Shown in pieces: positions 7,514 through 62,344 of a stretch of DNA of 64,000 bases (position 1 is its first letter; every line of letters starts with the position of its first letter). The stretch is from a virus: the IMG/VR virus record IMGVR_UViG_3300045988_117477, positions 33,725-97,724 of that record. The stretch is one strand, 5' to 3'. The notes beneath the pieces are model-generated. The model was not told the origin of the DNA. It searched no databases and was given only the letters and a program-made list of their open reading frames with translations. The translations under genes were made by a program, and so were the position numbers.

Positions 7514-7689
7514 GTTTATTTACAGGTGGTGTTTTGAAAGAATAAAAAACACTACCTTTTTTTGTTTCTGTTTTTGCTGAAAATATTTCTCTTCTATAAG
7601 AAATAAACACACCTATATTCCACCTTACAATCATGAACTTTGTTACGTGCTTCATGCACGTATGTTTAACAATTAAATACTATAAAATT

Positions 7690-8697
7690 ATGGGTGGTGA
7701 TAAAATCGTCCTTTTAGATGGAGCCGGGGCTAACGGTGGTGGTGCAGCCACTAACGGTCTTCTTTCAATGATTCCCGGCATGTTTGCTAATTTGATAGGT
7801 GGTAATAAAATGGATCCGAATCTGGTGGCGGCTTTGATGAACGGTCGTAACAACCAGGACGGTTTCGGTGGGGCTAACGGTTGGTGGCTCTGGATAATTG
7901 TTTTGTTCTGGCTGTGGGGTGGACGCGGCTTCGGTAACGGTTTTGGAAATGGCGGTGATTGTTGTGCCAATGGTTTGCCGGCTCAGTTGAATAACGATTA
8001 CGGTCGTGAACTTTTGATGCAGGCAATTCAAGGTAATCGTAGCGCCATAGATCAGATTGCTTCTGCTTTGAACTGTTCTACTACTCAACTTCAAAACGCT
8101 ATCTGCAACGTACAGGGTGCTATTGATAAAGTAGCTGGTCAGGTAGGTATGACTTCTCAGGCTGTTATCAACGCAGTTCAACAACAAGGTTGTGAAATAG
8201 GAAATCAAATCAGCTCTTGCTGCTGCAATTTGAGTTCGTTGATCAATCAAAGCACTTGCCAGACTCAGGGAATGATTACTCAGCAAGGTTTTGATAACCA
8301 GCTTCGCACGTTGGAACAAACCAATATCTTGCAGAACGGTCTCAACCAAGGTCTGGCTAACAATCGTGAGCAAGCTACAAGCCAATTCAATATCTTGTCT
8401 GCGAAACTTGACGCCCAAACCGTTATGATCAACGACAAATTCTGTCAGTTGGAAATGAGGGAGATGCAGAACACTATTGCTCAACTTCGTGAAGAAAAAG
8501 CGGCTTTGACAGCTTCGGCATTATCTCAGCAACAAACCCAGAATATCGTTGGTCAATTACGCCCGACGGCCGTCCCGGCCTACCCCTCTTGTTCTCCTTA
8601 CCAGGCTTATACTTGGGGACAGGTATTCGGAGGAGGTTGCTGTAATAACGGATGCGGATGTAACAACGGATGTTGCAATAACAACGCTGCTGTCTGA
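7690..8697 (+). CDS. Low-complexity Gly/Asn/Gln/Cys-rich protein with one predicted transmembrane helix (WWLWIIVLFWLWGG) and a C-terminal CCNNGCGCNNGCCNNN tail.
   Basis: ORF 7633..8697. The internal Met at 7690 is preferred because the leader MNFVTCFMHVC looks spurious. Composition read directly. Confidence 0.45.
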   Translation: MGGDKIVLLDGAGANGGGAATNGLLSMIPGMFANLIGGNKMDPNLVAALMNGRNNQDGFGGANGWWLWIIVLFWLWGGRGFGNGFGNGGDCCANGLPAQLNNDYGRELLMQAIQGNRSAIDQIASALNCSTTQLQNAICNVQGAIDKVAGQVGMTSQAVINAVQQQGCEIGNQISSCCCNLSSLINQSTCQTQGMITQQGFDNQLRTLEQTNILQNGLNQGLANNREQATSQFNILSAKLDAQTVMINDKFCQLEMREMQNTIAQLREEKAALTASALSQQQTQNIVGQLRPTAVPAYPSCSPYQAYTWGQVFGGGCCNNGCGCNNGCCNNNAAV

Positions 8698-11349: not shown

Positions 11350-11369
11350 ATTAAAATATTGTAAATATC

Positions 11370-12014
11370 GTGGTTAGAATCGCATATTTAGGAACCGATG
11401 GCTGTCCTGGTCATCACGTTATTCCAATACGAGGTAAATTTACGGAAGAGGATATTAAGGTAATAGAATCTATAGATTGTGATGATTTCTATAAGGTGTT
11501 TGATGTCATGCGTTTTAAGATAGCTGAGTTTAAAGGATGGACGATATTGGGAATCCCGGCAAGCTTAGACGATCATAGACCTGGAAGCAAAACCGTTATC
11601 TTCATAGAGGGTAAAGCTAACGAAGCTGATTTTATAGAAGTCATACAAGAGTATTCTTTTCTTAAAAATAAGGTAAAGAATCTTACCGAATTGTATCATG
11701 ATGCAGAATGGTTTGCGACTGGTAAATTGAATCAAGATCCGCCTAATAAGGAACAGTTTCAATTTGCGTTAGACAAGGATGATATTATTAACATGATTAG
11801 GGGAGTCGATTTAGAACCTTATTCTGATGTGGCGAATGAAATGGAGAAAATAGGATTGGGATCATCATCTGATTCTTCATATGAGGGTCCCACATGGTCT
11901 TGGTTTGTTAACAAAGTAGATCTTTGGCAGAAGAATAATGTATGGGATGGTTTTTCTGCTGAGTTCTTATGGGATTTGTATTGTAGGATAAAGAAAGCAG
12001 GTGATTATATATAA
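11370..12014 (+). CDS. Hypothetical protein.
   Basis: 214 aa ORF. Confidence 0.4.
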   Translation: MVRIAYLGTDGCPGHHVIPIRGKFTEEDIKVIESIDCDDFYKVFDVMRFKIAEFKGWTILGIPASLDDHRPGSKTVIFIEGKANEADFIEVIQEYSFLKNKVKNLTELYHDAEWFATGKLNQDPPNKEQFQFALDKDDIINMIRGVDLEPYSDVANEMEKIGLGSSSDSSYEGPTWSWFVNKVDLWQKNNVWDGFSAEFLWDLYCRIKKAGDYI

Positions 12015-13334
12015 TTTTACACTAAAAAATAGTATATAAATAGGTATTTGTAAATATTCTATTTATATTTGCGCTATGTATTTAGTGGAACAACATATAA
12101 TTACCATTAACGATAATAGGTATAAAGATTTAGATCGAATATGTTTCTTATCCAAAAACCTGTACAATGCAGCCTTGTATATAATAAAACAGGAGTTCCT
12201 TAGTACAGGTAAATGGATAAGATCAGGAGAGCTTAACAAAAGAATGGTGACTGAAGATAACATAGATTATAGAGCAATGAGTGGATCATCTTCTCAGCAG
12301 ATTCTTATGGCTTTAGATAAGAACCTAAAATCTTATTTCTCTGCTATCAAAGCATGGAAGCGCGACAATAAGAAATTTACAGGATGCCCTAAATTTCCAA
12401 GATATAAACATAAAACAAAAGGTAGGAATGTGTTTTCCTACTCTTACGCACAGTTTAGACATAAAGGAAATTTTATCCATTTTCCTAAAAAAGAAGGACT
12501 ATCTCCTTTAAAAACAAACTGTAAAGAAGGAACTGTGAAGCAGGTAAGATTTGTTCCTAAGCCGGATTGTTATGTTATAGAGGTGGTATATGAATCAGCT
12601 TGTAAGGACCAACTCAATGATAACAACAAAGTCATGGCTATTGACTTAGGAGTTAATAATCTTGCCTCTATATCTACTAATGTGGACAATAAGTCTATTC
12701 TGATAGATGGCAGAAGGCTGAAATCCATCAATCAGTATTATAATAAGAAAAGATCGAAAATTCAACAACAACTAAAGAAGGTAAATGGGAAAGAAAATTC
12801 GAGACGGCTAATGTCTCTTACAAGAAAGAGAAACAACAAAGTGAAGGACTATCTTCACAAGGCAAGTAAAGAAATAATCAATACTTGTATAGAAAAAGAT
12901 ATAACAACATTGATAGTTGGGCATAACGATGGATGGAAACAAAAGGTTAAATTAGGGAAAAGAAATAATCAAAATTTTGTTTCAATCCCATTTGAGATGT
13001 TTATATCGATGTTAAGGTATAAATCAGAAAGACAAGGACTAAGGTTTGTTGAAGTAAACGAATCTCACACGTCAAAATGCAGTTCTTTCGATTTAGAGAA
13101 AATATGTCATCATGAAACTTATGTTGGTAAAAGGATAAGGAGAGGACTATTTAAAACAAAAGAAGGAGTTCTTATTAATGCTGATATCAATGGAAGTTAT
13201 AACATCATGAGAAAAGTAAAAGGGGATGCAATAATGCCACCCTATACAGGGTTCGGGTATAACCCGGTTAAGAAATTTATTAACTAATTGTACAGGTGTA
13301 AACTTGTATATAATTACTAGATGTAGTTAGAGTA
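12015..13334 (+). mobile_element. IS200/IS605-family tnpB-only (IS1341-like, non-autonomous) element. Boundaries are approximate.
   Basis: A TnpB gene precisely fills the gap between two intact phage ORFs. No Y1 TnpA anywhere in the window. Confidence 0.45.
12076..13287 (+). CDS. tnpB: TnpB-like RNA-guided endonuclease (OrfB_IS605 / RuvC-like).
   Basis: N-terminus NLYNAALY. RuvC-I IDLGVNNLASIS. RuvC-II VEVNESHTSKCS. RuvC-III INADINGSYNIMRK. Zn-finger region C..CHH. Confidence 0.8.
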   Translation: MYLVEQHIITINDNRYKDLDRICFLSKNLYNAALYIIKQEFLSTGKWIRSGELNKRMVTEDNIDYRAMSGSSSQQILMALDKNLKSYFSAIKAWKRDNKKFTGCPKFPRYKHKTKGRNVFSYSYAQFRHKGNFIHFPKKEGLSPLKTNCKEGTVKQVRFVPKPDCYVIEVVYESACKDQLNDNNKVMAIDLGVNNLASISTNVDNKSILIDGRRLKSINQYYNKKRSKIQQQLKKVNGKENSRRLMSLTRKRNNKVKDYLHKASKEIINTCIEKDITTLIVGHNDGWKQKVKLGKRNNQNFVSIPFEMFISMLRYKSERQGLRFVEVNESHTSKCSSFDLEKICHHETYVGKRIRRGLFKTKEGVLINADINGSYNIMRKVKGDAIMPPYTGFGYNPVKKFIN

Positions 13335-37724: not shown

Positions 37725-38715
37725 GATATTTTTCTTTTATCTTGTTACTAATTATCAAATCTGCCACATCATCTCCGTCTCCTACATTTTCAACATTTTG
37801 AAGATAGTCCGATACTTTTATCCTTGACTTCATCATCATCCCATCTATCTTTTTACTCCATGTCTCAAATGCTTGTCCTTTGTCCGGAAAAGCTACAGTC
37901 TTTCTATCTTTTAAAACATCTATCACTTCCGGCCTTAGATTCTGCAACCCACCGGTAGCTACAAATAACTCATCTGGTTTATTCACAGCGCATATAATAG
38001 CCGTCTTTTCTGATTCCACCAAATTAACCACCTTATCCGGATACTGGCTTAGAAGATGTTCTCCAAACAGGCATTGTCTAAACAAGAAGTCTCTTGCATG
38101 CAACGAGTGATAAAACATAACATGAGGCCGCTCATTGTCACCGTCTTTTTCCTTCACTCTTTTTACATCAATCTCATTCCCCTGGCTGTCGGTCTTTATA
38201 CAAAAGTCCATGATCTTGCCGGTTCTGCATACAAAATCTTTGTCTATCTGCCAGAATATACAACACCCTTTCCATCCCCATAAGTCCATTGTTCCAACAT
38301 GATACCTTCTAAATACGTCAGATACCCTTTCTTTTCCCCATAGAGACGATAAAAATCTAAATACGGTGTTTCTATCGTCTGGAACTACAGTCCTCTCAAA
38401 CTCGCTAAAAGGTATGTAATTTACAACGTCAGGATTTACAGGAGGACGATAAGCTCTTATGCACTTATTTCCCGAAATCCAAAGATCTTTGTCACCTACA
38501 TCCTTGCCGGTAGGTCGTTTATCATAACCGCAAGTTCGTTCATGATCGCATCTTCCAAACTCATTGCCAACGACCTGACCGGTCGCCACATCAATATAAG
38601 GGGTAAGGCACCGGCTTTTCCCGCAAGCCGGGCAGGTTAGCTTCAGTCGGCTCCTGCCAGGCCTGCGGTCAAGTTGAAACCGAGGTACGTTTTCGTATTT
38701 TCTAAAATCAAGCAT
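37702..38715 (-). CDS. Putative DNA primase (N-terminal Zn-binding plus Toprim-like domain).
   Basis: CPACGK...GRCDHERTCGY, then LVESEKTAII ... VAFPDKGQAFE resembling the Toprim E / DxD region. Confidence 0.4.
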   Translation of the reverse strand: MLDFRKYENVPRFQLDRRPGRSRLKLTCPACGKSRCLTPYIDVATGQVVGNEFGRCDHERTCGYDKRPTGKDVGDKDLWISGNKCIRAYRPPVNPDVVNYIPFSEFERTVVPDDRNTVFRFLSSLWGKERVSDVFRRYHVGTMDLWGWKGCCIFWQIDKDFVCRTGKIMDFCIKTDSQGNEIDVKRVKEKDGDNERPHVMFYHSLHARDFLFRQCLFGEHLLSQYPDKVVNLVESEKTAIICAVNKPDELFVATGGLQNLRPEVIDVLKDRKTVAFPDKGQAFETWSKKIDGMMMKSRIKVSDYLQNVENVGDGDDVADLIISNKIKEKYHEPGCLY

Positions 38716-38737
38716 CCTTAGCTCCTCTCATTGCTTT

Positions 38738-40054
38738 TTATATCATGAACCTTTTAGATATTTCCTCTGCAATATCATATACAACCGTATGATCCTCTTC
38801 ATTGTATGGTTTATTGATATTCAACACTCCTTTTCTCACTTTGAATTTCTTATCTTTTCTAAGGTGATTCAACATACCTTGTTGGAACACACAGTCCGCC
38901 TTTTCAAGTGCTACACTGTCTTCTGTCCATTCTTTCAGCGTATATCCTTTACTGCTCGTGCTTTTTGGAGAAAAGTTCATAATACGTGCATCAATGCCAT
39001 ACCATGCTTTAACCATTCTTCTTTCAGCTTCCAATTGGAATGCATATGATTCCCATATTCCTCCCGATTTAAAGTCAAGAATGACCACTTCTTCTTTTTC
39101 CACTTCTCTTACTTCCTTCTTCGGATCACCTTTTTTGAACTGTCCGGTAGCCCTTTGATACACGGCTCCAAAATAACCTTCTTCTTTGTATTTGAATGTC
39201 ATTTTAACCATCGCATCAATAGGTGTTGCTACAAGGTAATCCTCTAAAGAAAGGATTCTTTCTATCATCATCGGTTTCACCTTGTAATCAGAACAGAATT
39301 TGGCAAACTTCATGACCCTGACAATCATATCGTCAAGATCATCTATGCTATTAAAGAACCGATCAAGATTTTTCTTAGATATCTTCAGCTTGCCTTCTTG
39401 CACTGTCTTAACCACAAAGCTTCGATTTAAGACCATATCTCTACCTGTTAGGTACAATCCGTATAAGTAGTGCATGATCGTTCCCTTATCGGCTTCATAC
39501 TGCGCTACCTCTTCTGGATTGCGACCAAGCATCTTTATCTCTTGCTTCCATTCCTGAAGTGCTGTCTTATCATCTACATACCCATCTTTGATTAAAGTTG
39601 TTACCGAAGCATATATCTTAGCCGTCCCATCATCCATCTTTCTTACATAAAAACGATTATCGTCTAATGTCAATCTTACGAATTTGGGGGTCTCAATCTT
39701 CTTTAACTCATCACAGATATAAAACGGCTCTAATGTTTCCTGATTTTCTGTAAACGGATTCGAATCTTCTTCTCCAGGGTTAGGAGCGGCTTCCTCCGCC
39801 TGAGCTTCCGGTTCCTCCTTCTGGACCGGCTCTGGCTCAGGCGCCGGCTCTTTAACTACTGGAACCTGTCCGCCTCTTTCTGCTATGTCTCTGTTCTTTA
39901 TTAAAGACATAACCTCCTTCTTCAACTGCTCTGGTGTTTGGTTAGGATCTGACACCGACATCACAACATCGTTCATTCTAAACAACGTATTTCCCTCTCC
40001 TTTCACCATAGGTACAAACCCTAAATCTGTCAATATTTTTATTTTCTCTTTCAT
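38738..40054 (-). CDS. Putative PD-(D/E)xK-like nuclease with a Pro/Glu-rich linker.
   Basis: VILDFKSGG (DxK) motif. Low-complexity PAPEPEPVQKEEPEAQAEEAAP linker. Confidence 0.35.
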   Translation of the reverse strand: MKEKIKILTDLGFVPMVKGEGNTLFRMNDVVMSVSDPNQTPEQLKKEVMSLIKNRDIAERGGQVPVVKEPAPEPEPVQKEEPEAQAEEAAPNPGEEDSNPFTENQETLEPFYICDELKKIETPKFVRLTLDDNRFYVRKMDDGTAKIYASVTTLIKDGYVDDKTALQEWKQEIKMLGRNPEEVAQYEADKGTIMHYLYGLYLTGRDMVLNRSFVVKTVQEGKLKISKKNLDRFFNSIDDLDDMIVRVMKFAKFCSDYKVKPMMIERILSLEDYLVATPIDAMVKMTFKYKEEGYFGAVYQRATGQFKKGDPKKEVREVEKEEVVILDFKSGGIWESYAFQLEAERRMVKAWYGIDARIMNFSPKSTSSKGYTLKEWTEDSVALEKADCVFQQGMLNHLRKDKKFKVRKGVLNINKPYNEEDHTVVYDIAEEISKRFMI

Positions 40055-40236
40055 GATCTTCCTCTAATCAATTCTTCTTTAATACAATGTAACACTGTTT
40101 CCACTTCATCTTTATCTTTATCTTTCACTGCGATAGCTATATCCTTACCATAACTCTCTCTCTGTATGTGAGCATAAAAGATAGTTTCATTGTCAGCTTC
40201 TATTCTTATTTTATAAAGTTTTCTCATATCTGTCAA
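40051..40236 (-). CDS. Hypothetical small protein.
   Basis: 61 aa ORF. Confidence 0.3.
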   Translation of the reverse strand: MTDMRKLYKIRIEADNETIFYAHIQRESYGKDIAIAVKDKDKDEVETVLHCIKEELIRGRS

Positions 40237-40735
40237 TTATTTCAATAATTAATCTACCTCTTTCTTTAATCATTCCCCTGTTTTCCATATCCAGTACCTT
40301 CTTTACCGCATACTTCCACACAAAAGGAAATTCTGTTTCAAGTTTATCAAATTCCATCCTGTCAAGATACATGTCGAATACCGTATGCTCCGATTCATGT
40401 AGGAAAACTATATTATCCCTGCAAGTAGCAACCGACTTATATAACCTTTTCGGAAGTATGTGACATACGTTACATACTGTAGGAAAATGAATAGCCTTAC
40501 CGGTCATAGACATTCGAATAGTACTCAACTCCTCCAACATAAGACGAAAAAACCCGGATAAATCCGGGTTCTCTAACTTTTTCTTCTTGCTGCTGTTTTT
40601 AATGGATGTAATTCTGTCTTTTTTCTTCGGAGTCAACTCTTTGCTCCTGCAAGCCTGGCATAAGCCATGACTTCTTATCATTACTTTTCGTCCGCATTTT
40701 TCGCAGACGTATAGCTTCTTTTCCTTGCTTTCCAT
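40211..40735 (-). CDS. Zinc-ribbon protein.
   Basis: CEKCGRKV...CQACRSKE. Confidence 0.35.
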   Translation of the reverse strand: MESKEKKLYVCEKCGRKVMIRSHGLCQACRSKELTPKKKDRITSIKNSSKKKKLENPDLSGFFRLMLEELSTIRMSMTGKAIHFPTVCNVCHILPKRLYKSVATCRDNIVFLHESEHTVFDMYLDRMEFDKLETEFPFVWKYAVKKVLDMENRGMIKERGRLIIEIIDRYEKTL

Positions 40736-40920
40736 TCGAATAATAATGATATTATTGAAAAGAATAATCCCGCTGAAGCCAGTAGATAAGGTACGTTCAT
40801 TAATAATTTAGATACCTCGTCTGTCTTAATCACTATCAGAAGGAAAGCGCCTGCTGAAAGCAATGATATTATCGCCACAACAAGCGCTATGTTGGAAACT
40901 ACATCAGCCTTACTCTTCAC
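40681..40920 (-). CDS. Small membrane protein (two transmembrane helices).
   Basis: Hydrophobic stretches IALVVAIISLLSAGAFLLIVI and LLASAGLFFSIISLLF. Confidence 0.35.
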   Translation of the reverse strand: MKSKADVVSNIALVVAIISLLSAGAFLLIVIKTDEVSKLLMNVPYLLASAGLFFSIISLLFEWKARKRSYTSAKNADEK

Positions 40921-41407
40921 TCTTCTTCTCGCCTAATTTTTCAGCTCCCTTCTGAAGATCGTATTTAAACACTTCAATGATTTTCGTTTCCACAATAGAC
41001 TCGCAATTCCAGTCTCCTAACGTACCCTGCATACCTTTAGTCAACACAGCCTCAGCGTCTTTCGGATTGCCGGCCTGGATATACATATAGCATGGAGTTT
41101 TCTTTTCTTTACCTTTCTTTTCATCCAGTGTAATGTAATTCACCTTACACTTATACCAGTACTCAGCTTCTCCGTTGAAAAAGATTTCCGACACTTTAAT
41201 AGGATTAATTTTTACAACCTCGAAAGAATTGTACAAATCCTTAAAGATCTCCAACGATCTTGATTCTGCCTCTGTGTAAGACAAGGCATCTACCAAATAC
41301 TTTTCAGTTACTTTCTTTTTTTTGCCGTTCTCGATATTATCAATCTCGGCTTTTACTGTGATTTCAAACCAACGATTCATGTCTATATTTTTATTCAAAT
41401 TAATCAA
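40910..41407 (-). CDS. Hypothetical protein.
   Basis: 165 aa ORF. Confidence 0.35.
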   Translation of the reverse strand: MINLNKNIDMNRWFEITVKAEIDNIENGKKKKVTEKYLVDALSYTEAESRSLEIFKDLYNSFEVVKINPIKVSEIFFNGEAEYWYKCKVNYITLDEKKGKEKKTPCYMYIQAGNPKDAEAVLTKGMQGTLGDWNCESIVETKIIEVFKYDLQKGAEKLGEKKSEE

Positions 41408-42630
41408 TCCATTTCCTTTTGTACCATAAAGCGTTTACACCTTGATAATTTCAATTTCTTGTATGTAATATCTCTTTGGTTTTTACCATCAATATCTCGA
41501 ATATTAAAACTACCGGTTTTACGCCTTGCAAATATAAAGTAATAACTGTTTTCAAACATAACCCTATCAAACAATCGGAAACCAAAAACTTCAAAAGGAG
41601 ATTGATTTGGTCTTTTTATCCCTCCTTTTGGAATCTTTTGTTTATGGATCTGACGATTATGTCTTCTTACTAATCTTACTTTATAATAATAACCTAACCT
41701 TATAGCATCAAAGTTTTTAGAAATAACAAAAGCATCTGAAACATGAGATTTTTCAATACCATGTTTAATCCTATTGTATTTTGTAACATAACCGAAAGTC
41801 ATAGAAATGTTGTCGTATTTAGATTTTAGTTCTTCATACAATCTCCATTTCATTATTCCCATTACGGCTGCGTCGCGAAGCGACGATCCCCGTTTGATCT
41901 TTAAATCTATATTACCTTTATGGTATTCTTTATGACAAGTTTCACATAAGGTAATAAGATTAGATGGGGAATCTCCACCTGTCTTTCGTGATTCAATATG
42001 ATGAACATTCAATACTGGGTCTTTTGACTTTCCCTTACAATGCTGGCATTTATGTCCATCTCTTGCTAAAACATATTCCCTAACGTTCCAAAATCCAAGT
42101 TGATCACCCTCCTGATATTCTTTACCTGATATATTAGGATTGTTAATCTTTTGAGTATCAAATTGAGCTACTTCGATAACAATACGAGATATTGGTAATA
42201 TAGAACATACATTGTCAATAACACGAATATGGGCGTCTACTTTGTATTTCACCGAAGGTGCTACCCATCCCGGACGCTTACTTTTTATTCTATTATCAAA
42301 ACGAGGTTTTCTATATCTCAATCTATTTCGTCTTGATCTTCGTAGCTCCCTTCTGGTAGACAAAAGATCTACAATATCATTTCTAAGGATTACTTCACTA
42401 CTGTAAAGTTCTTTGCTTTTCGTTGTAGCCGATAAACCAACATGTTTAGTACCAGCATCAACGCCTAACACAATTTCTTGTTTGTAATCAGATGTTACGT
42501 ACATTAATTTGATGGTAAACGGACATAGGTTTACAACGACTGCTTTGTTTGATTTGAGCAGTCTCCTAACCTTTCCATGTCTTGTTGTTGGCATCATAGG
42601 TTTACCATTTATGTCTTGTACGTACACCAT
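41404..42630 (-). CDS. iscB: IscB, an OMEGA-family RNA-guided nuclease (PLMP, split RuvC, bridge helix, HNH).
   Basis: PLMP-like KPMMPTTRHGKVRRLL. RuvC-I GVDAGTKHVGLS. Arg-rich bridge RRELRRSRRNRLRYRKPR. RuvC-II IVIEVAQFD. HNH CQHCKG...NVHHIESRKTGGDSPSNLITLCETCH. RuvC-III KSHVSDAFVI. Confidence 0.85.
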   Translation of the reverse strand: MVYVQDINGKPMMPTTRHGKVRRLLKSNKAVVVNLCPFTIKLMYVTSDYKQEIVLGVDAGTKHVGLSATTKSKELYSSEVILRNDIVDLLSTRRELRRSRRNRLRYRKPRFDNRIKSKRPGWVAPSVKYKVDAHIRVIDNVCSILPISRIVIEVAQFDTQKINNPNISGKEYQEGDQLGFWNVREYVLARDGHKCQHCKGKSKDPVLNVHHIESRKTGGDSPSNLITLCETCHKEYHKGNIDLKIKRGSSLRDAAVMGIMKWRLYEELKSKYDNISMTFGYVTKYNRIKHGIEKSHVSDAFVISKNFDAIRLGYYYKVRLVRRHNRQIHKQKIPKGGIKRPNQSPFEVFGFRLFDRVMFENSYYFIFARRKTGSFNIRDIDGKNQRDITYKKLKLSRCKRFMVQKEMD

Positions 42631-43090
42631 ATCTACAAACGTTTTTAATGTTTATTCAACATAAGTCAGAGTAAAAACTCTGTTAGTACCCATCGCCAAT
42701 GTTATTTAAGGTTTTTTTGTAAGCAACACTATAGCTCGAATACAACCATTGTTTAATCACTTACCTTAGAGCTACAGACTTGGGTAAACATCCGTAGGTA
42801 ACTATATATTCTCAAATAACGTAGTGTTTATTTCAACACTTAGGCTAATAATCGGAATAGCTTTTGGCTATTATACATAATACGATACAAATTGTTTATG
42901 ATTTGTATGAGTTATGTATTATTCTCGATTATTTACTATCGTGGCCACGAAATACTTACACCCCTCTAAGTGCGTCAGGGCTTCAATCATAGCTTCTTTT
43001 ATCTCTTTTTCTTCCATTCTGTTTGTTTTTTTGGACAAAGATATGTCTTTTGATAATAAAAAAGATTCAAAATGATTTAATTTAGCTTAA
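42631..43090 (-). ncRNA. Candidate IscB omega-RNA (guide plus scaffold) in the 460-bp non-coding region directly upstream of iscB.
   Basis: Largest ORF-free interval in the - block. IscB omega-RNAs are encoded immediately 5' of iscB on the same strand. Structure not verified. Confidence 0.35.
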
Positions 43091-43534
43091 TTACTGCTCT
43101 TTTGATTCGTCCGGTATAGGCATGTCAAACTTTTTTCTGATAAACGACTCTGTTTCTTCATTGAATGGATAGGCTTCCTTAATAAAATTCATAGCTACCT
43201 CCATATCACCGTCTGCTATATCTTTATACCTTTCAAAGATACCAACCAGGTCATTGTTATATGAACGCTCTTGTTTTATGTTGTACACGTATTTCAACAC
43301 CCTGTCTTTAATTTCATTGGCTTTTTTCACGGTGTCATTGAAGGTATTTATACTTGTCAATTCAGGGTTTTTATTTTTCTCATCTATCTTATCAAACTCT
43401 TCCTTGCTATATCCTGTTTCTCCTTTAACAGCCGGGCAAACACCCTCCTTCATGATCCAAAACTGTTCATACGATCCTGCCAGATATCTCGATTCTGTTT
43501 TAAATGCATTATACTTGACAAGCAAATTAGCCAC
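43091..43534 (-). CDS. Hypothetical protein between the iscB and tnpB loci. Not a TnpA.
   Basis: 147 aa ORF with no HUH / catalytic Tyr motif. Confidence 0.35.
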   Translation of the reverse strand: MANLLVKYNAFKTESRYLAGSYEQFWIMKEGVCPAVKGETGYSKEEFDKIDEKNKNPELTSINTFNDTVKKANEIKDRVLKYVYNIKQERSYNNDLVGIFERYKDIADGDMEVAMNFIKEAYPFNEETESFIRKKFDMPIPDESKEQ

Positions 43535-43600
43535 CTCAGTTGCACCTCCTATGGTTCTAAAACCGATGCCGATATCTTTTAACTTGACACACTCCCATCG

Positions 43601-44776
43601 CTAAAGCAAATGGGATTCTTGGATACAAACGCAAGAAACCCCGATATTGCTATCGCTGGAATTACTCTTGCTCTCCAATTCGGAAATGCCCTTCCGAAGT
43701 ATATTACGGGCTGCAAGAACATCACGGTCGTTTACCGCTCCGCACGACGGGCATACCCACGTGCGGTCGCGTAACGACAGTCCTTTATTAATGCAGCCAC
43801 ATTCGCAAGTTTTGGAAGAAGGATACCATTTGTCAATCTTGTGTACTATCACTCCATACTTTGAAGCAACATACGTAAGTTTGTCAATAAAAGAAGAGTG
43901 ACTGAGATCGGAAACCTTCTTTCCCCACAAACGTTTCATTCCTTCAATGTTTAGATCTTCAATAAAAATATAATCATATTGTTTGCATAACTGGTGTGCT
44001 AATCCCCATTGAAAATCCGATCGAAGATCGTTTATTTTACGATACGTTTGTTGGAGTTCAAACAGTCTCCTTCTTCTATTGTTGGATCCTTTCTTTGCAT
44101 TAGAAAGCCGTTTGTTTAATTTTCTAATCTTGTTTTGATATTGTTTGAAGAATAGTGGAGAATCGATTTTGCTACCATCGCTTTTAGTTAGATAAGTTTT
44201 CAGGCCAAAATCCAACCCTATAGATGCACCATCATGTGTCTTTCTATAAGAGTTTATAAGATTATGATCTGTAATAATTATCAGGCTATATCGATAGCAT
44301 GTTTCTCTAACTATTCTAATTTGTTTAACATTACCTTCGTAGACTCTACTGTATGAAAATCTAAATCGTTTCTTCCCTTTGTTAATTGTTAAACAATTAC
44401 CATTCAGGGTAAACCCACCTTGTTTGAATACAAAAGAATTGAATTTTTCCGGTGATTTAAACTTAGGAGGTCGTTTAGCCAATTTCTTAAAGAAACGATT
44501 ATAAGATTCATCAAGACGTTCAAGTATTTCTTGCACTGTTTGGGAATGAAGAAGATTTCTTTTTATCCTTTTTGCAAAATGCTTTTTCATTTTACTAACT
44601 GAGATATATTTTCCAAACAGTTTGTAGTATCTACGTTGTAGAGCTAAAGCATGATTCCATACAAAACAACATTCTCGAAGCATTTTGTCGAGATACTTCG
44701 TTTTCTTGGAATGATAGATGTTGTATTTGTATGAAATCATTTTTTTTATCTGTAATTTTGATTCAAAATTAATCAA
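43601..44776 (-). CDS. tnpB: TnpB-like RNA-guided endonuclease (IS200/IS605 OrfB family).
   Basis: RuvC-I IGLDFGLKTY. RuvC-II FIEDLNIEGMKR. Zn finger CECGC...CPSCG. RuvC-III NDRDVLAARNI. Confidence 0.8.
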   Translation of the reverse strand: MINFESKLQIKKMISYKYNIYHSKKTKYLDKMLRECCFVWNHALALQRRYYKLFGKYISVSKMKKHFAKRIKRNLLHSQTVQEILERLDESYNRFFKKLAKRPPKFKSPEKFNSFVFKQGGFTLNGNCLTINKGKKRFRFSYSRVYEGNVKQIRIVRETCYRYSLIIITDHNLINSYRKTHDGASIGLDFGLKTYLTKSDGSKIDSPLFFKQYQNKIRKLNKRLSNAKKGSNNRRRRLFELQQTYRKINDLRSDFQWGLAHQLCKQYDYIFIEDLNIEGMKRLWGKKVSDLSHSSFIDKLTYVASKYGVIVHKIDKWYPSSKTCECGCINKGLSLRDRTWVCPSCGAVNDRDVLAARNILRKGISELESKSNSSDSNIGVSCVCIQESHLL

Positions 44777-44816
44777 ACCAATTCATCCACCTTCTAAAGT
44801 ATGGTGGTTTTGTTGG

Positions 44817-45002
44817 TTAAATAATCATAAATACCGGAACTCCAGTTCTTGGATACACGACTTCTTTTTTGTTCTTTATATTCCAGTTTTTAGCTTCAAT
44901 TGGAATACCTTTATTAGCAAGCTCTTTGTCTATATACAGACTTATGTCTTCGTCTGTCAATGCCACAATCTCATCTCTGCTTAAATCAAAAACTGTTTTC
45001 AT
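44817..45002 (-). CDS. Hypothetical small protein.
   Basis: 61 aa ORF. Confidence 0.3.
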   Translation of the reverse strand: MKTVFDLSRDEIVALTDEDISLYIDKELANKGIPIEAKNWNIKNKKEVVYPRTGVPVFMII

Positions 45003-45202
45003 TTTTCTTTATTTATTAAATTAAACAACTTACTTCTTTGTTCAGGCTCCGTATATTCTACCCATATATCGGCCGCCACATTTCTAAGAAATTCCATAAA
45101 GTCTTGATGATCCCTGTATTCAGCAGAATCAACTTTTCTCACAAAACTTAGAATTTCCTTTAACATCTTATTGTTTTCTTCAAGAAGTTCTCTGTCGGTC
45201 AT
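44999..45202 (-). CDS. Hypothetical small protein.
   Basis: 67 aa ORF. Confidence 0.3.
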   Translation of the reverse strand: MTDRELLEENNKMLKEILSFVRKVDSAEYRDHQDFMEFLRNVAADIWVEYTEPEQRSKLFNLINKEK

Positions 45203-45221
45203 AACCTTTCATATTTTCTTC

Positions 45222-45665
45222 TTAACTCATTTTTACCCATTTGGCATTATCAGGTATTAAATCCTTAAATTCTTCTGGGATTTTCCCTTGATGCCACCAA
45301 TCATTGGAAATGATTTTTCTCCCATCATTTGAAATAGCCTCCATCATTCTTCCTCCCATACCCATGAATCTTCGTGTTTTGTTGTTTGTATTGGGAACAA
45401 ACGGATTAGCTATCCATGATTCTCCATCTATAATCAACCAATTGGGATTATTCTTATTCTCTTCATATAGTCTGATCCAAAACGCACAAGAATAGCAAAC
45501 TCCATCTCGTTCCATAATAGACCGTATAGGACATTTACAAAAATGTTCTGGATTCATGCTATGTATATTATTTTGCCCCGACCCATCTTCGCAGCCGCAT
45601 TTGGGACATATTTTCTTCTTTTCGCTTTCCATATTGCTTATGCTGTTTTTAAGGTAATAGATCAT
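45222..45665 (-). CDS. Zinc-ribbon protein, paralog of 22759..23247.
   Basis: CPKCG, IRSIMERDGVCYSCAFW, IDGESWI, GGRMM, FKDLIPDNAKW shared with the 22759 ORF. Confidence 0.5.
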   Translation of the reverse strand: MIYYLKNSISNMESEKKKICPKCGCEDGSGQNNIHSMNPEHFCKCPIRSIMERDGVCYSCAFWIRLYEENKNNPNWLIIDGESWIANPFVPNTNNKTRRFMGMGGRMMEAISNDGRKIISNDWWHQGKIPEEFKDLIPDNAKWVKMS

Positions 45666-45915
45666 CTAAATAAGCCCATGATTCCATTTCATCTAATCTG
45701 TATAAAATACATCCTGGACGGCTGGATATAAAAGTTTTGTTCTCTTCCAATATACCCATAATTGGACTCTTTGATCCTATTGTTGATTTCTTGGGGAGAA
45801 ACACAATAAAACGGTGGCAATCTGGAATTACTGTTATAGAATGCCACACGCTGTTAATGCGCCACTCTGCACCAGCTTTAAAAAGAGGAATAGCATATTC
45901 TTGTTCCATGTCTAT

Positions 45916-46371
45916 TTAGTTTTGAATTAATGTGAAAAGAGCAATTATAGCCGCAACTGATATAATAGATAAAATAACGTTTGCCAATGCATGCTTTAAG
46001 AGGCGCCTTTCGAGATTTGCGATATGCTTTCTTAGTCCTTCGCAATGTTTTTTTGTAGATTTGGATTCTTTGAGTTCTTTGTTGTATTTTACCATATTTT
46101 TGTCGCACCATTTCATTATATCAGCACTTGCTTTGTTAAGCATATCTCTGATTTTTTCATCATCATAGAATGGTATTTCAACATCAACACAAGTATTTGG
46201 CCTGTATAATAATCCGTATGTATCAAAGCACACTTTCAATGTGACAACTTCAGGCTTAGCCATTTCTTCGGCTTGTTTCTTTATCTGCTCATCTGTTGCT
46301 TCGGCTTTAGCTTTAAGCTCATTGTAGTCTTCTATATTCAGCAAAGCCATGTTTTCAAATTCTGTATTCAT
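45916..46371 (-). CDS. Hypothetical protein with a C-terminal transmembrane helix.
   Basis: Ends ALANVILSIISVAAIIALFTLIQN. Confidence 0.35.
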   Translation of the reverse strand: MNTEFENMALLNIEDYNELKAKAEATDEQIKKQAEEMAKPEVVTLKVCFDTYGLLYRPNTCVDVEIPFYDDEKIRDMLNKASADIMKWCDKNMVKYNKELKESKSTKKHCEGLRKHIANLERRLLKHALANVILSIISVAAIIALFTLIQN

Positions 46372-46557
46372 ATCTACTATTTCTTATTTAGAGTGAATGT
46401 TTGCCAAATGCTTTATCCCAACGCCTGCTTGCTATCTGTACACATACTACCAACGCATCACGATATTTACGGGATTAGATGGTTCTTATGTGGCGGATGT
46501 TGATAATCCTAACAACGCATTCGTACTGATTTTTGCAAACTGTTCACTCAATTATTT

Positions 46558-46809
46558 TTAATTTTTAATTAATTCAACTCCTATAATATCTTCGTAATCA
46601 ATATAGTGCATCATTGAAACACCGTTGTCATCATTAGCCATTATTTCAACACAAGCAGAACATCTATTGAATGCACCTTCGATTGTTATACCTGTTAATT
46701 GCCTAAAGAATCCTAAAAATTTCTTTGGCCTGATAATCCTAATACGGACAAGATCATTCCAAGTTATTCCTTTATATTCACAAATAGATTTAAACTTCTC
46801 GGCTGTCAT
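46558..46809 (-). CDS. Hypothetical protein.
   Basis: 83 aa ORF. Confidence 0.3.
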   Translation of the reverse strand: MTAEKFKSICEYKGITWNDLVRIRIIRPKKFLGFFRQLTGITIEGAFNRCSACVEIMANDDNGVSMMHYIDYEDIIGVELIKN

Positions 46810-46828
46810 AATTCGATTATTTTAGCTG

Positions 46829-47113
46829 TTAGTCATTTTTTGGAATCCAGTTATCCGTATCACAGTGAAAGCAATATCCGGTTTTAGGATGCTCCGCACC
46901 GTCTTTAGCTCCGCAGGTTCCGCAATAATATTCCTTATCATATTCTGGGGAAAGACCTTTATTTCGTTCTTTGATAACAGCTTTTCTTTCTTCGAGCATC
47001 ATCATTTTATCAGGATTACGACTCAAATAAAACTTTCTGACTTTATGTATTTGCTTATCAAACAGATCATCGGACTCGGCAATTTGTTTTGCTGTATATT
47101 TACTCATGCTCAA
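46829..47113 (-). CDS. Small zinc-ribbon protein.
   Basis: CGTCG...CFHCD. Confidence 0.3.
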   Translation of the reverse strand: MSMSKYTAKQIAESDDLFDKQIHKVRKFYLSRNPDKMMMLEERKAVIKERNKGLSPEYDKEYYCGTCGAKDGAEHPKTGYCFHCDTDNWIPKND

Positions 47114-58902: not shown

Positions 58903-59316
58903 TTAAAAGAAACTCCAACAAAATGTTACGATAAATTCTCCCATTCCGTATTCAGCAAGTTGCTTAAACGATTCTATCCCATTGCAGTAACAAAAAACAT
59001 CATCATTGTCATCATCGTTGATGTTCAATGATAGTTTCATTGTCTTTCTTTGTTCATCTCCTGTCTCTTTCCGTACAATCTGACATTCTACGTATTCAGG
59101 CTCCTTCCCTGTTCTTTCTACAAATTCATGAAACCTTAAATCAATTTCATGTTTGACTTCTTCAATGTTGGATATTATCACCTCGTTTTCACAATTCGAG
59201 CAAATAGCATGCATAAAAGATCCATCAAAATAATCTATTATTTTTCCGGTATTCGGATTTACTATGGCTTCACAAGCAACATTTGTTCCACCACATCTTG
59301 TACATATATATCCCAT
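58903..59316 (-). CDS. Zinc-ribbon protein.
   Basis: CTRCGG...CSNCEN. Confidence 0.35.
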   Translation of the reverse strand: MGYICTRCGGTNVACEAIVNPNTGKIIDYFDGSFMHAICSNCENEVIISNIEEVKHEIDLRFHEFVERTGKEPEYVECQIVRKETGDEQRKTMKLSLNINDDDNDDVFCYCNGIESFKQLAEYGMGEFIVTFCWSFF

Positions 59317-59459
59317 AATTATCTGTTTTTAAAATGTTCAACAATTTCATCTACTGTAGCCTTACGCCACGCAAAGCAGGCCCCGTCTCCCCTGAACCGG
59401 AGCTCTTCGCACTTTCCCACCTGTCTCCTGTGGCGTCCGTCACTATCAGCCATTATAAC

Positions 59460-60269
59460 CTATTCTTCTAAATCATTCTCTATCATAACTTCCTTTATCA
59501 ATTCATCTGTCTCCTCGTAACATCCCCAGCAAGAATCAACCTCTTCCCATTCTTCACAATCTTCATCCTCTCTTGATTCGTCTTTGTATTTCTTGGTAAA
59601 TGCTACCTTCTTTTCAAGAACGTACCCTTTTACATCTCCCCACATCCACATACCTATGGACTTTACTTCATTATCTATAATTTTGGCACAATCTTCTTTC
59701 CAGTCTCCTTCCTTATCGCAGACTTCATTATCATATTTTTCTTTTGTAACGTATGCTATCCCTTTTATATAATCACCTTGACTATAACCCCTTGTTGACC
59801 ACTCTATAGCCACCACATCTTTTCCATATTTGGATATGATATCTAACAAATCTTCGTCATCCAGATCCTCTATTAATTCCCCTCTGCAATCAAAGTCCGT
59901 CAAATCACTTGGAAAAAACTCTTGACCTATATATGGACTTGTCTTATGCTTCAACTCCCATACATTGCTACCTCTGTTGTATGTGAATGAGATCCCATTC
60001 GCTTCCCCTTTCTTTAAATATTTTACAATGTCTTTCTGTTCTATATGCTTCATTACAATAGCATCAATAACATCTCTAAGATTATGCTTGTTATCGTAGA
60101 AGAAAGTTTTCCAATTGCATTCATCATGCAATCGATGCATATCAGAGTATTCAAAAAAGAATGACCCAAACAAACCCCAATTAGTTATAGGGCATTCTGA
60201 ATCATGGCAATAATACACTTTAATGCGATAATCGCCTACTTCTTTTGTTGTAATAAGATCGTCTTCCAT
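59460..60269 (-). CDS. Hypothetical acidic protein.
   Basis: 269 aa ORF with an Asp/Glu-rich C-terminus. Confidence 0.4.
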   Translation of the reverse strand: MEDDLITTKEVGDYRIKVYYCHDSECPITNWGLFGSFFFEYSDMHRLHDECNWKTFFYDNKHNLRDVIDAIVMKHIEQKDIVKYLKKGEANGISFTYNRGSNVWELKHKTSPYIGQEFFPSDLTDFDCRGELIEDLDDEDLLDIISKYGKDVVAIEWSTRGYSQGDYIKGIAYVTKEKYDNEVCDKEGDWKEDCAKIIDNEVKSIGMWMWGDVKGYVLEKKVAFTKKYKDESREDEDCEEWEEVDSCWGCYEETDELIKEVMIENDLEE

Positions 60270-60280
60270 GTCTTTATATT

Positions 60281-60733
60281 TTAAATAGTTCTTAATTTTT
60301 CTTCGATAAATTCATCTATTACATCATAGTATGAGCCATCAAAATCCCCATATTTCTCTGTAAACTCTTTAGTCCACTCTTGAATGATGGCAAATGCCTC
60401 TTCCCTGCTACATTCTTTTAATCCCATTAGATCATCCACGGCTATCACCGACATCTCTTGCAGATTTCGTAAATAATTCAAATCTATGCTATATGGTAGC
60501 TTGCCTACTTCTATACATACATAATGACCTTGTTTAAAGGCATCCTGCAAGTCTTCAAGACTCTCTATCAATGACTCAGACTCATCATCTATTCTTATCT
60601 TGTATAACTCAAAATCTTCATTTTCTGCCGACACCCATATCTTATAGGCTTTTTCGTTGGACAATCTTTTCCAAACAAATCCGTCACTGAATACAATTAG
60701 GCTACCTGTTACTATCGTATTTTTCATAACCAC
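60281..60733 (-). CDS. Hypothetical protein.
   Basis: 150 aa ORF. Confidence 0.35.
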   Translation of the reverse strand: MVMKNTIVTGSLIVFSDGFVWKRLSNEKAYKIWVSAENEDFELYKIRIDDESESLIESLEDLQDAFKQGHYVCIEVGKLPYSIDLNYLRNLQEMSVIAVDDLMGLKECSREEAFAIIQEWTKEFTEKYGDFDGSYYDVIDEFIEEKLRTI

Positions 60734-60735
60734 TT

Positions 60736-61050
60736 TTAATCTGTTATTCTGTAATAATAATCAAGTTCTTCTCCCTTAAAGTTGTTCATGGCATACTCGT
60801 CAGCTTCTCGCCACAACCGGTCATACAATGCAGCCAGTTCGCGATCACCTTCATAATGCTGCCAGATTTTATGATTCAATACAAGCGTTAATTCCGTGAA
60901 AAACTTATAATCATCTTTCCATTCATTAAACGCACGTCTGTAGGTATCCTTGACACCTGCTATACCATACTTGTCGGCTATACTAAAATCTTCCCAAAAG
61001 GTAGTCAGTAGGTTATAGCCCACTTCTTTCATAAATTCTTTGAATGTCAT
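60736..61050 (-). CDS. Hypothetical protein.
   Basis: 104 aa ORF. Confidence 0.35.
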   Translation of the reverse strand: MTFKEFMKEVGYNLLTTFWEDFSIADKYGIAGVKDTYRRAFNEWKDDYKFFTELTLVLNHKIWQHYEGDRELAALYDRLWREADEYAMNNFKGEELDYYYRITD

Positions 61051-61470
61051 AAACTATTATTTTAGGTATATAATTATCTTATCTTATCAATGACCTCTCT
61101 CTTGAACTCGTAATATTCATATATGCGACCTTTATAATCAGCCACCATTTCTTAAAATTACTTCTGCTTCTTCTGCGCTGTTAAGTTTTAATTCGTTTCC
61201 CATTTTATGTATTGTTTTCGCCGTTCACTATCTGATTAATGTATGGCCCTGGCCACGAACAGCCAGGCTGGCCTCATGGCAGGACGGGCGCCTCCTTACC
61301 CTGGCTGCTCTGCCCACTCCCTGTATCCTACGTTAAAACCAATAGGATCATACCTTTTGATCATAGTACCATAATTCTCTCTACCACAATATCTGTTCTT
61401 TCCTCCAATAATCCATTTCTCATCGTCTCCATCTGGAGATATGGAGTTAAGATACTTCTCATAATCTTTC

Positions 61471-61839
61471 CTACTCTTCCCCATCTTTGTCTTGATTTAA
61501 GCAATAGTTAATAAAATAAGCAACCTGTTCATTTTCCCCTGGATTACTATAATCATATAAAGTCATGTCAATATAATCCAACATAACTACACGAAAATCG
61601 TTTTTTTTGACATACACTTTCGTTAAATACATAGAAATTCCATCAATTTCTATTACCACTGGAAACTGATCATCAAAGTCAAACGCATTATTAGTTTCTT
61701 TAAATTCTTTAAACTCTTTAAATTTTAGCTTTACGCTTCCACCGTTCTCCAATAATGCTTCCTTGATATACTTTAATCTTTTTGCATTCAGATCGACCTC
61801 TGCTTCTTCTATTTCTTTATACAATTTATTTAGATCCAT
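61471..61839 (-). CDS. Hypothetical protein.
   Basis: 122 aa ORF. Confidence 0.35.
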   Translation of the reverse strand: MDLNKLYKEIEEAEVDLNAKRLKYIKEALLENGGSVKLKFKEFKEFKETNNAFDFDDQFPVVIEIDGISMYLTKVYVKKNDFRVVMLDYIDMTLYDYSNPGENEQVAYFINYCLNQDKDGEE

Positions 61840-62344
61840 ATTCCACTATATTTATATTATCGAATTTTTCTTTTATAATATCCGCTCTGTACTCGTTTGT
61901 TACCATAGCATGCTTGCCTGGCTTCATTCTCCACAAATTAAAATACCTTGTCACATTCATAGTGGCATTAAATAATGATATTTCATATCTTGTGTTTCCA
62001 TTTTTATCACGCTCTATGTTTTTAACATAACATATGTCTGGCTTGTATTTGAAATAATTAAAAAGCCTATACCATCCCTTCCCGTTACATGTTTCACGAT
62101 TCCATATTCCAGCAAGCTTCCTATATCCCCTTACCGGTATTTTCTCTATTTCTTTTGGTACGATTTCAATATACTTTCCTTCTCCGATTGGTATAGTCAT
62201 ATTACCTGCCTCTTCCGTACAAAAGTATTCTATTTCAGATGCCATATCTTTATATACATAGAACCGGTATAGGTTCCCGTCAGGGTCTACCCGATCCATA
62301 TAGTATAATATCACTTTGTCTACTTCTATTCTTATTTTCTCCAT
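61826..62344 (-). CDS. Hypothetical protein. Start trimmed to the internal Met (MEKIRIEV), because the longer ORF would run through the terminator.
   Basis: GGAGGA-like SD 5 nt before Met 62344. The track ORF extends to 62416 across the hairpin. Confidence 0.4.
   Translation of the reverse strand: MEKIRIEVDKVILYYMDRVDPDGNLYRFYVYKDMASEIEYFCTEEAGNMTIPIGEGKYIEIVPKEIEKIPVRGYRKLAGIWNRETCNGKGWYRLFNYFKYKPDICYVKNIERDKNGNTRYEISLFNATMNVTRYFNLWRMKPGKHAMVTNEYRADIIKEKFDNINIVEYGSK

Follow-up and report, generated by a model that had tools for sequence, protein, structure and literature searches.

An intact iscB gene in a phage replication-gene block

We analyzed a 64,000-nt stretch of viral DNA (positions 33,725 to 97,724 of IMG/VR record IMGVR_UViG_3300045988_117477; hereafter, the window; G+C content, 37.5%), in which a gene for the RNA-guided nuclease IscB and a predicted omega-RNA lie side by side on the (−) strand within a mobile element. 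The window is ~95% identical to csAssE-Sib (OR575929), a 151-kb human-gut phage; the carrier of the element is a ~150-kb human-gut phage, and its host is presumably a member of the Bacteroidales. Around the locus, csAssE-Sib is annotated with a primase/helicase, a DnaB-like helicase, a "DNA replication factor," NinG, DUF4494, and an exonuclease, which backs the replication-gene block named in a preliminary description of this DNA that was made from its letters alone. Alignment to the window revealed that csAssE-Sib lacks the IscB segment. Our literature search returned no paper about csAssE-Sib and none devoted to a phage-borne IscB.

The iscB coding sequence (41404..42630, (−) strand) specifies 408 aa, a size that fits the IscB class (no REC lobe, about 400-500 aa). 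Pfam analysis revealed a full-model match to RRXRR at residues 2-175 (E = 9e-61), inside which lie both the PLMP-like N-terminus GKPMMPT and the Arg-rich bridge helix RRELRRSRRNRLRYRK, and an HNH match at residues 195-238 (E = 3.6e-9), between RuvC-II and RuvC-III. The NCBIfam equivalog guided_IscB ("RNA-guided endonuclease IscB") scored 360.9 bits (cutoff, 175), and a phmmer search against the PDB retrieved OgeuIscB (E = 3e-45) along with four other IscB structures, the E-values ranging from 3e-45 to 1e-35. When aligned to OgeuIscB, the catalytic RuvC residues are D58 (RuvC-I), E153 (RuvC-II), and H296/D299 (RuvC-III); the HNH module (motifs CQHC..NVHHIE..CETCH) contributes H210/H211 and two CxxC pairs. 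All catalytic residues of IscB are intact in this alignment, and the preliminary claim of a complete IscB with every hallmark holds at the coordinates given above. Residues ~333-408, the presumed region of interaction with the target-adjacent motif (TAM), gave no sequence alignment to solved IscBs in the phmmer search of the PDB. The protein is an ordinary IscB, and the standard models (NCBIfam and Rfam) name it and its RNA directly.

GenBank phages hold 31 more distant homologs labeled "HNH endonuclease" or "hypothetical protein." The first of these labels would suit a protein-only HNH homing endonuclease with an unrelated RNA-like region upstream, an explanation that is already refuted by the three RuvC motifs and the bridge helix, by the guided_IscB score of 361 bits, and by the Rfam HEARO RNA that adjoins iscB in every copy examined; we assign it a negligible probability. 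The profile search of the protein thus returned an IscB with RuvC and not a bare HNH homing endonuclease. Cas9 (type II CRISPR) was ruled out by the length of 408 aa and by a Cas9d model score of 18 bits (cutoff, 375), and no repeat array was found in window positions 38000-47000, where a CRISPR array was sought.

At least 300 IMG/VR stretches encode an IscB ≥82% identical to that of the window, and the best 80 of them were analyzed. Full length (406-408 aa) was retained in 62 of these 80 IscB copies. Pairwise comparison of the window iscB with 42 other full-length copies yielded ratios of nonsynonymous to synonymous divergence (dN/dS) of 0.05-0.13 at dS values of up to ~1.7, which shows strong purifying selection on IscB across copies diverged to dS >1. 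The exact protein was found on 23 contigs; the cluster around it at 90% identity comprises 3,063 members. The same cluster also lists proteins of 318-322 aa, one of them named "oligoribonuclease NrnB / DHH phosphoesterase"; this is the length of the gene downstream of one type of insertion discussed below (L022 type), and the link probably arose via fused gene calls.

The omega-RNA and its predicted guide

The preliminary description placed an omega-RNA upstream of iscB on the same strand and proposed a covariance-model search and folding of that region, both of which yielded positive results. Rfam HEARO (RF02033) matches 42682-42874 on the (−) strand (105.5 bits; gathering score, 83; E = 1e-21), which is the only Rfam match in the 64-kb window, and the single-sequence minimum free energy fold of the omega-RNA has a z-score of −4.5. 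On the basis of the HEARO match, covariation, and fold, we place the scaffold at 42648..42932 on the (−) strand. Specifically, an outer stem (P1) pairs AUAAUCG (42932-42926) with CGAUUAU (42854-42848) and encloses a long hairpin A (42917-42875) and a short hairpin B (42870-42858), i.e., the architecture of the HEARO 5′ domain. P1 covaries; among other phage subfamilies it reads AUAUCCG/CGGAUAU or GUAACCG/UGGUUAU, and bacterial HEAROs have GUCAACU/AGUUGAC. RNAalifold analysis of 34 sequences returned 32 core pairs, with compensatory double changes in 20 of the 32, as well as a covarying 3′ hairpin at 42682-42667, with which the Rfam match overlaps at its 3′ end. The HEARO core, with its GCC..GGC pseudoknot, reaches 42682, and a further invariant hairpin lies at 42662-42648; the candidate range for the 3′ end of the omega-RNA accordingly extends down to ~42648.

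The element starts 58 nt upstream of the start of the Rfam match, and conservation between insertion sites begins with P1, at its first base. We rejected an omega-RNA that begins at 42874, where the Rfam match starts, and has its guide within the conserved hairpin, because of the covarying P1 from 42932; cmscan had misplaced the 5′ domain, where the Rfam alignment is poor in the phage copies. In characterized IscBs, the guide is the flank beyond the transposon end, and that end bounds the scaffold (Meers et al. 2023). Since element and scaffold share their first base, the predicted guide is the flanking phage DNA directly 5′ of it, GTGGCCACGATAGTAA (42933..42948, (−) strand), its length of 16 nt being taken from known IscBs. 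Within the window, just one other near-match to the guide was found, with 3 mismatches, i.e., at chance level.

The 460 nt upstream of iscB, previously described as an open reading frame (ORF)-free interval, do hold the omega-RNA (42932-~42648) and the guide, but positions 43017-42919 belong to a truncated small phage ORF of 32 codons (42919..43017, (−) strand), which was recognized by translation and by alignment to csAssE-Sib, where the full form has 86 codons. A hidden protein gene had been proposed as a test of the RNA region, and protein-coding sequence proved to be confined to its distal 100 nt, the remnant of this small ORF. A transcript of the small ORF would read into the guide and the omega-RNA. 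Upstream of the ORF lies a promoter-like box, TATCTTTG (43036..43043, (−) strand), which is kept in csAssE-Sib and fits the −7 promoter consensus of the Bacteroidota (TAnnTTTG); it is a candidate source of a guide-containing transcript.

Element boundaries and family

Homology limits and junction alignments across >80 related IMG/VR phage loci, together with absence from csAssE-Sib, delimit a mobile element of 1,552 bp (41381..42932, (−) strand). Copies at ≥14 other sites share with the window only the sequence from 42932/42928 to 41385-41376, and both the left and the right junctions are sharp in alignments of the copies; some contigs hold two copies of the element. The 3′ terminal segment, TTAATTTGAATAAAAATATAGAC (41381..41403, (−) strand), which is the left end in the transposase's sense, is conserved to the junction at all family-A sites and is now the leader of the downstream gene. 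As DNA, the omega-RNA end of the element folds strongly (−15.7 kcal/mol, z = −6.5). By the criteria that can be tested on sequence, other than an iscB-proximal hairpin and the C-terminal TAM domain, the element is a member of the IscB/ISC2 family, and it is a non-autonomous ISC2 transposon of the IS200/IS605 family that carries an omega-RNA and iscB.

A scan of 185,579 bacterial and archaeal species genomes (one genome per species), which detects close relatives only, found only two loci with an IscB >65% identical, namely on a Vibrio olivae contig (80%) and in a Phocaeicola metagenome-assembled genome (69%). The Vibrio olivae locus (NZ_JBHMEP010000019.1, a 20-kb contig; our locus L084) also has the HEARO RNA. 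This copy is odd for an otherwise human-gut phage family, and the contig may be phage or a contaminant. Two further phage contigs, L039 (~7517-7692) and L053 (~1773-1945), hold extra HEARO-like omega-RNAs of a different subfamily (P1, AUAACCC/GGGUUAU) beside the family-A IscB that they already carry.

An ATG follows the element at independent insertion sites

The ATG directly 3′ of the element (41378..41380, (−) strand) is both a target motif and putative TAM of the N/ATGA class (the slash marks the insertion point) and the start codon of the DUF4494 gene (41380..40910, (−) strand; Pfam DUF4494, E = 8e-41). At each of ~19 independent sites, which span four subfamilies, the IscB strand has an ATG directly after the element; the motif is ATGAAT after the element of the window and ATGAAG, ATGACA, ATGGAA, ATGGCA, ATGGCT, ATGGGA, ATGGTA, ATGTTC, and others elsewhere. 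At ~15 of the ~19 sites, an ORF of 82-919 aa starts at this ATG, and one copy of the element lies in front of a tRNA gene. The window contains 2,559 ATG/CAT trinucleotides, only about 4% of which are able to be gene starts; therefore, the start-codon bias is far beyond chance, and the best explanation for it is that phage genes are tightly packed and insertions within them are selected against.

The ATG target motif itself is already known. ISC families insert at N/ATGA (Kapitonov, Makarova and Koonin 2016), and the TAM of GstIscB, TTCAT, reads ATGAA on the IscB strand (Meers et al. 2023). The insertion sites suggest that the compact 408-aa IscB, which comes from AT-rich phage DNA, would use only ATG(R) as its TAM. 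At the resident locus, the start of the scaffold fills the TAM slot. All subfamilies have AT(A/T)N there (ATAA in the window), with A or T at position 3 in every one of them; this departure from ATG is the expected difference between self and non-self.

Empty alleles and junctions at four insertion sites

Alleles of four insertion sites were drawn from IMG/VR. At all four sites, the empty alleles consist of the guide flank and the ATG once. The three sites other than that of the window (L022, L048, and L029 types) display precise insertion, with no duplication and no loss. At the L022-type site (9 occupied, 2 empty), the empty alleles read ..CACAAGTTTATATT/ATGAAGG, and the occupied flank reads ..CACAAGTTTGTATC/. 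At the L048-type site (9 occupied, 111 empty), 21 of the 111 empty alleles match an occupied flank perfectly over 24 nt and then continue with ATGTTCGG. At the L029-type site (2 occupied, 116 empty), 57 empty alleles are one position off the guide flank.

For the window site, ~117 of the 119 sampled alleles were usable, of which 22 were occupied and 95 were empty. A homolog of the guide followed by ATGAAGAG occurs in ~72 naive alleles with 1-2 mismatches, mostly at the TAM-distal positions −11 and −14; specifically, 42 of these alleles read TTTCGTGGCTACGATAGTAA/ATGAAGAG, and 21 have ..GTAGCC.. there. The protospacer-like match that had been suggested as a check was thus found in related phages, next to an ATG. 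In ~14 naive alleles, including the csAssE-Sib type, ACGAAG stands in place of ATGAAG, and the six naive alleles with a perfect protospacer all carry ACG. We also considered whether the complete conversion of naive alleles with a perfect protospacer and ATG would be evidence of a sweep; this fits the window site but fails at the L048-type site, and the idea was dropped. A search of the window and csAssE-Sib for naive versions of the other insertion sites found none.

The window copy has a derived configuration, with the right junction at the DUF4494 ATG and the left one at an ATG inside the small gene. In a second class of occupied alleles, the left junction falls precisely at ATGGAAG, the start of that gene. 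Random deletion was rejected as the origin of these two main left junctions, because in naive alleles an ATG immediately follows the position of each (the internal ATGAAG and the start ATGGAAG); both were therefore made at target motifs. Transposase half-integration into a neighboring ATG would produce such junctions, as would recombination between copies at adjacent sites.

Rarer occupied alleles have deletions of 6, 10, or 27 nt exactly at the boundary of guide and scaffold or short duplications of the first ~12 nt of the element at the same boundary (loci L003, L203, L012, L221, L002, L113, L008, and L014). Every such change gives the copy a new guide, and either replication slippage or repair after self-cleavage at the near-cognate ATAA might be the cause.

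A model for retention and homing, and its alternatives

We consider the locus to be best explained, with a probability of roughly 0.8, as an ISC2-type element whose IscB and omega-RNA take a guide from read-through transcription and recut the element-free allele, leading to retention or homing of the element. In this model, transcription of the upstream phage gene would run through ~16 nt of flank (42948-42933) into the scaffold, and the resulting guide would equal the sequence just left of the insertion. The IscB-omega-RNA complex would then cut wherever the guide sequence is followed by ATG(R), as it is at this locus when the element is absent, whether in the donor joint after excision by the transposase TnpA or in the naive allele of a related co-infecting phage. 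Recombinational repair from an element-bearing genome would restore the element (retention) or copy it (homing), and the resident copy would be spared, as the scaffold begins with ATAA in its TAM position. A Y1 TnpA supplied in trans would be needed for moves to new sites. Transcription, guide length, TAM, cleavage, and homing of the element are what we infer from its sequence and that of its relatives.

The source of TnpA bears on how much of this cycle would depend on excision. As the preliminary description stated, no TnpA is present: tblastn with two Y1 transposases found none in the window. In 3.26 Mb of related phage DNA, there are ~58 IscB and ~43 TnpB genes and one TnpA. This sole TnpA (132 aa; NCBIfam IS200/IS605 transposase, 140 bits) lies at 2395-2793 of L146 (IMGVR_UViG_3300045988_107218), and the ends of its element differ from those of the IscB element. 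Positions 2395-3992 of L146 make up an autonomous IS605 element in which TnpA is divergent from a TnpB of the TnpB-1 family described below.

Recutting could be limited to the donor joint after TnpA excision within one phage lineage, without any phage-to-phage homing. This is the experimentally shown role of GstIscB (Meers et al. 2023), and a Y1 TnpA does exist in the phage family, beside the TnpB of L146; however, that one TnpA stands against ~58 IscB and ~43 TnpB genes and comes from an element with different ends, none is in the window, and naive targets are abundant in relatives. Moreover, a 2026 review puts forward, as a theoretical proposal, TnpA-independent "non-restorative homing" of OMEGA elements into co-infecting phages. 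We therefore regard the donor-joint explanation as possible but not probable. Because TnpA is so rare and naive alleles are so abundant in relatives, homing into related co-infecting phages is plausible. The homing-element role raised in the preliminary description is substantially supported by the finding that the guide flank plus ATG equals the element-free allele in many relatives, which makes the role plausible rather than proven.

Several observations weigh against the retention-and-homing model. The TAM is deduced from insertion sites only; P1 contains 2 mismatches in the subfamily variants ATTCTCG and ATTTTCG; and no convincing TnpA hairpin was found at the iscB-3′ end (z = +1.25). No naive allele sampled at the window site has both an ATG and a protospacer that fits the window's guide perfectly. 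The window copy is no simple insertion, as ~150 bp of the naive phages are missing from it, and homing from this copy would also delete half of the small gene. Lastly, perfect-match naive alleles persist at the L048-type site (the 21 of 111 above); therefore, homing, if it occurs, is not sweeping.

The persistence of these alleles at one site would also fit an inert passenger, i.e., a single insertion inherited vertically or by ordinary recombination, with IscB idle in the phage; most insertion sequence (IS) copies are neutral. Flank distances would fit as well. Occupied alleles are closer to one another near the element (0.050 versus 0.071) and not 1.5-3 kb away (0.129 versus 0.132), which we rejected as evidence of homing since a single-origin allele on diverse backbones is expected to show this pattern in any recombining population, and ordinary recombination fits equally well. 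What speaks against an inert passenger is the strong purifying selection on IscB among copies diverged to dS above 1, the maintenance of the omega-RNA by compensatory changes, and the spread of the element (~19 independent insertion sites, >3,000 cluster members, and two copies on some contigs), which together make this explanation unlikely.

Cleavage without copying would make IscB a co-opted weapon against competing phages or the host. The targets are indeed alleles of related phages, and homing endonucleases are known to give such exclusion (2026 review), but the guide changes with each insertion site, as it would for a selfish element, and the sole other near-match has 3 mismatches. A host match was sought within the window only, and none is expected from a flank-derived guide. 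Since the guide is flanking phage DNA, as in all IS200/IS605 OMEGA elements, the anti-host warfare suggested in the preliminary description is unsupported, and we judge the weapon explanation as a whole to be improbable.

A bolder extension of the retention-and-homing model, which we offer tentatively and think rather doubtful, is that the family is a phage-adapted lineage that spreads among co-infecting gut phages mainly by TnpA-independent RNA-guided homing, uses start-codon ATGs as its TAM, and is parked harmlessly between genes. Its guides might be renewed by transposase-type joins to neighboring ATGs and by micro-deletions at the boundary. The lineage is represented by >300 copies in IMG/VR phage contigs versus the two bacterial or archaeal loci >65% identical from the scan for close relatives. 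If true, this would amount to a natural RNA-guided gene drive in the virome.

Neighboring TnpB elements and other window-specific segments

A first TnpB element (TnpB-1; 43583-44825, (−) strand) contains a coding sequence at 44740..43601 for 379 aa (NCBIfam guided_TnpB, 246 bits). It is a clean insertion after TTTATG in a gene for a 222-aa phage protein that is intact in csAssE-Sib, and it splits this gene into 45002..44817 and ~43582..43091; the downstream gene fragment and the TnpB-1 stop codon share one reading frame. The predicted guide of TnpB-1 is TTAAAAGATATCGGCA (43582-43567), from which the naive csAssE-Sib allele differs by one base. We considered and rejected an IStron (group I intron) for TnpB-1, given that the non-coding ends measure only ~85 and 17 nt, counted from the ATG at 44740, and have no Rfam intron match. 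The last ~35 nt at the 3′ end of the IscB element (TTGATTAATTTGAATAAAAATATAGAC/ATG) resemble the sequence 5′ of the TnpB-1 start (TTGATTAATTTTGAATCAAAATTACAGAT..ATG), with 70% identity over 40 nt between 41376-41415 and 44745-44784; the two may have a translation leader in common, or the resemblance may be due to chance, as the DNA is AT-rich. Among the related loci, L060 holds at 2225-2425 a ~200-bp miniature of TnpB-1 with both ends and no ORF, which adjoins an array of four tRNA genes (2552-2915).

A second TnpB gene (TnpB-2; 12076..13287, (+) strand; 403 aa; guided_TnpB, 193 bits) lies in a 1,958-bp window-specific segment (11361-13318, (+) strand), together with an unannotatable ORF of 214 aa (11370..12014). 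The segment stands in place of ~70-100 bp of csAssE-Sib sequence, unlike a clean IS insertion. A further 3.1-kb segment of the window (59087-62170) is missing from csAssE-Sib; it has five (−) strand ORFs with no clear Pfam matches, and within it ORF 61471..61839 shows weak sub-threshold matches to EcoRI and DUF4833.

Comparison with known systems and significance

The nearest experimental counterpart is GstIscB of Geobacillus stearothermophilus (Meers et al. 2023). Both belong to non-autonomous IS200/IS605-family elements, both have the omega-RNA upstream of iscB, bounded by the transposon end and with the guide in the flank, and in both the self locus is one or two bases off the TAM. The GstIscB TAM, ATGAA on the IscB strand, is exactly the sequence that follows the element of the window (ATGAAT). 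Catalytic numbering is nearly the same, with D58/H209/H210 in GstIscB, whose dead form is D58A/H209A/H210A (Meers et al. 2023), and D58/H210/H211 here. In contrast to GstIscB, the window IscB is known from sequence alone and resides in a gut phage rather than a bacterial chromosome, the window has no TnpA, the relatives' only TnpA sits in a TnpB element with other ends, and insertions of this family are almost all at start codons of phage genes.

The N/ATGA transposons of the ISC2 type (Kapitonov, Makarova and Koonin 2016) share with the window element a size of 1.3-1.7 kb with iscB as the only ORF, the absence of terminal inverted repeats and of a target-site duplication, insertion directly upstream of ATGA, and co-occurrence with TnpB elements. 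They were described from genomes of Cyanobacteria and Proteobacteria, whereas the window family is in phage genomes and is relaxed at position 4 of the motif (A, G, or T).

With OgeuIscB (PDB 7UTN and 7XHT, among others), the window IscB aligns over residues 2-332, including all catalytic residues. The TAM of OgeuIscB is NWRRNA, compared with the ATG(R) predicted here. OgeuIscB has 496 aa, as opposed to 408, and the C-terminal ~75 residues of the window protein do not align to it. The RNAs have in common a HEARO-type core with the GCC..GGC pseudoknot, whereas the 5′ domain of the window RNA differs in that one of its inner hairpins is very long and the other very short.

Seg and Mob, which are free-standing homing endonucleases of T-even phages, target the nuclease-free allele and are expected to spread in co-infection. 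Like them, the window element places a nuclease gene between conserved phage genes and is polymorphic among relatives; it differs in that recognition would rely on an RNA guide from the flank plus a 3- to 4-nt motif rather than on the protein, and in having discrete transposon ends.

As a textbook system whose presence in a phage is no news, the element is a useful study system rather than a surprise. Hundreds of near-identical phages with or without it, at four or more defined sites, form a natural data set in which guide, target, and TAM can be read from the sequence, and the family is a direct testing ground for the proposed non-restorative homing. The TAM ATG(R), if confirmed, would be short for an IscB. 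The family also shows how such an element coexists with densely packed phage genomes, namely by insertion exactly before start codons, in the orientation of the gene.

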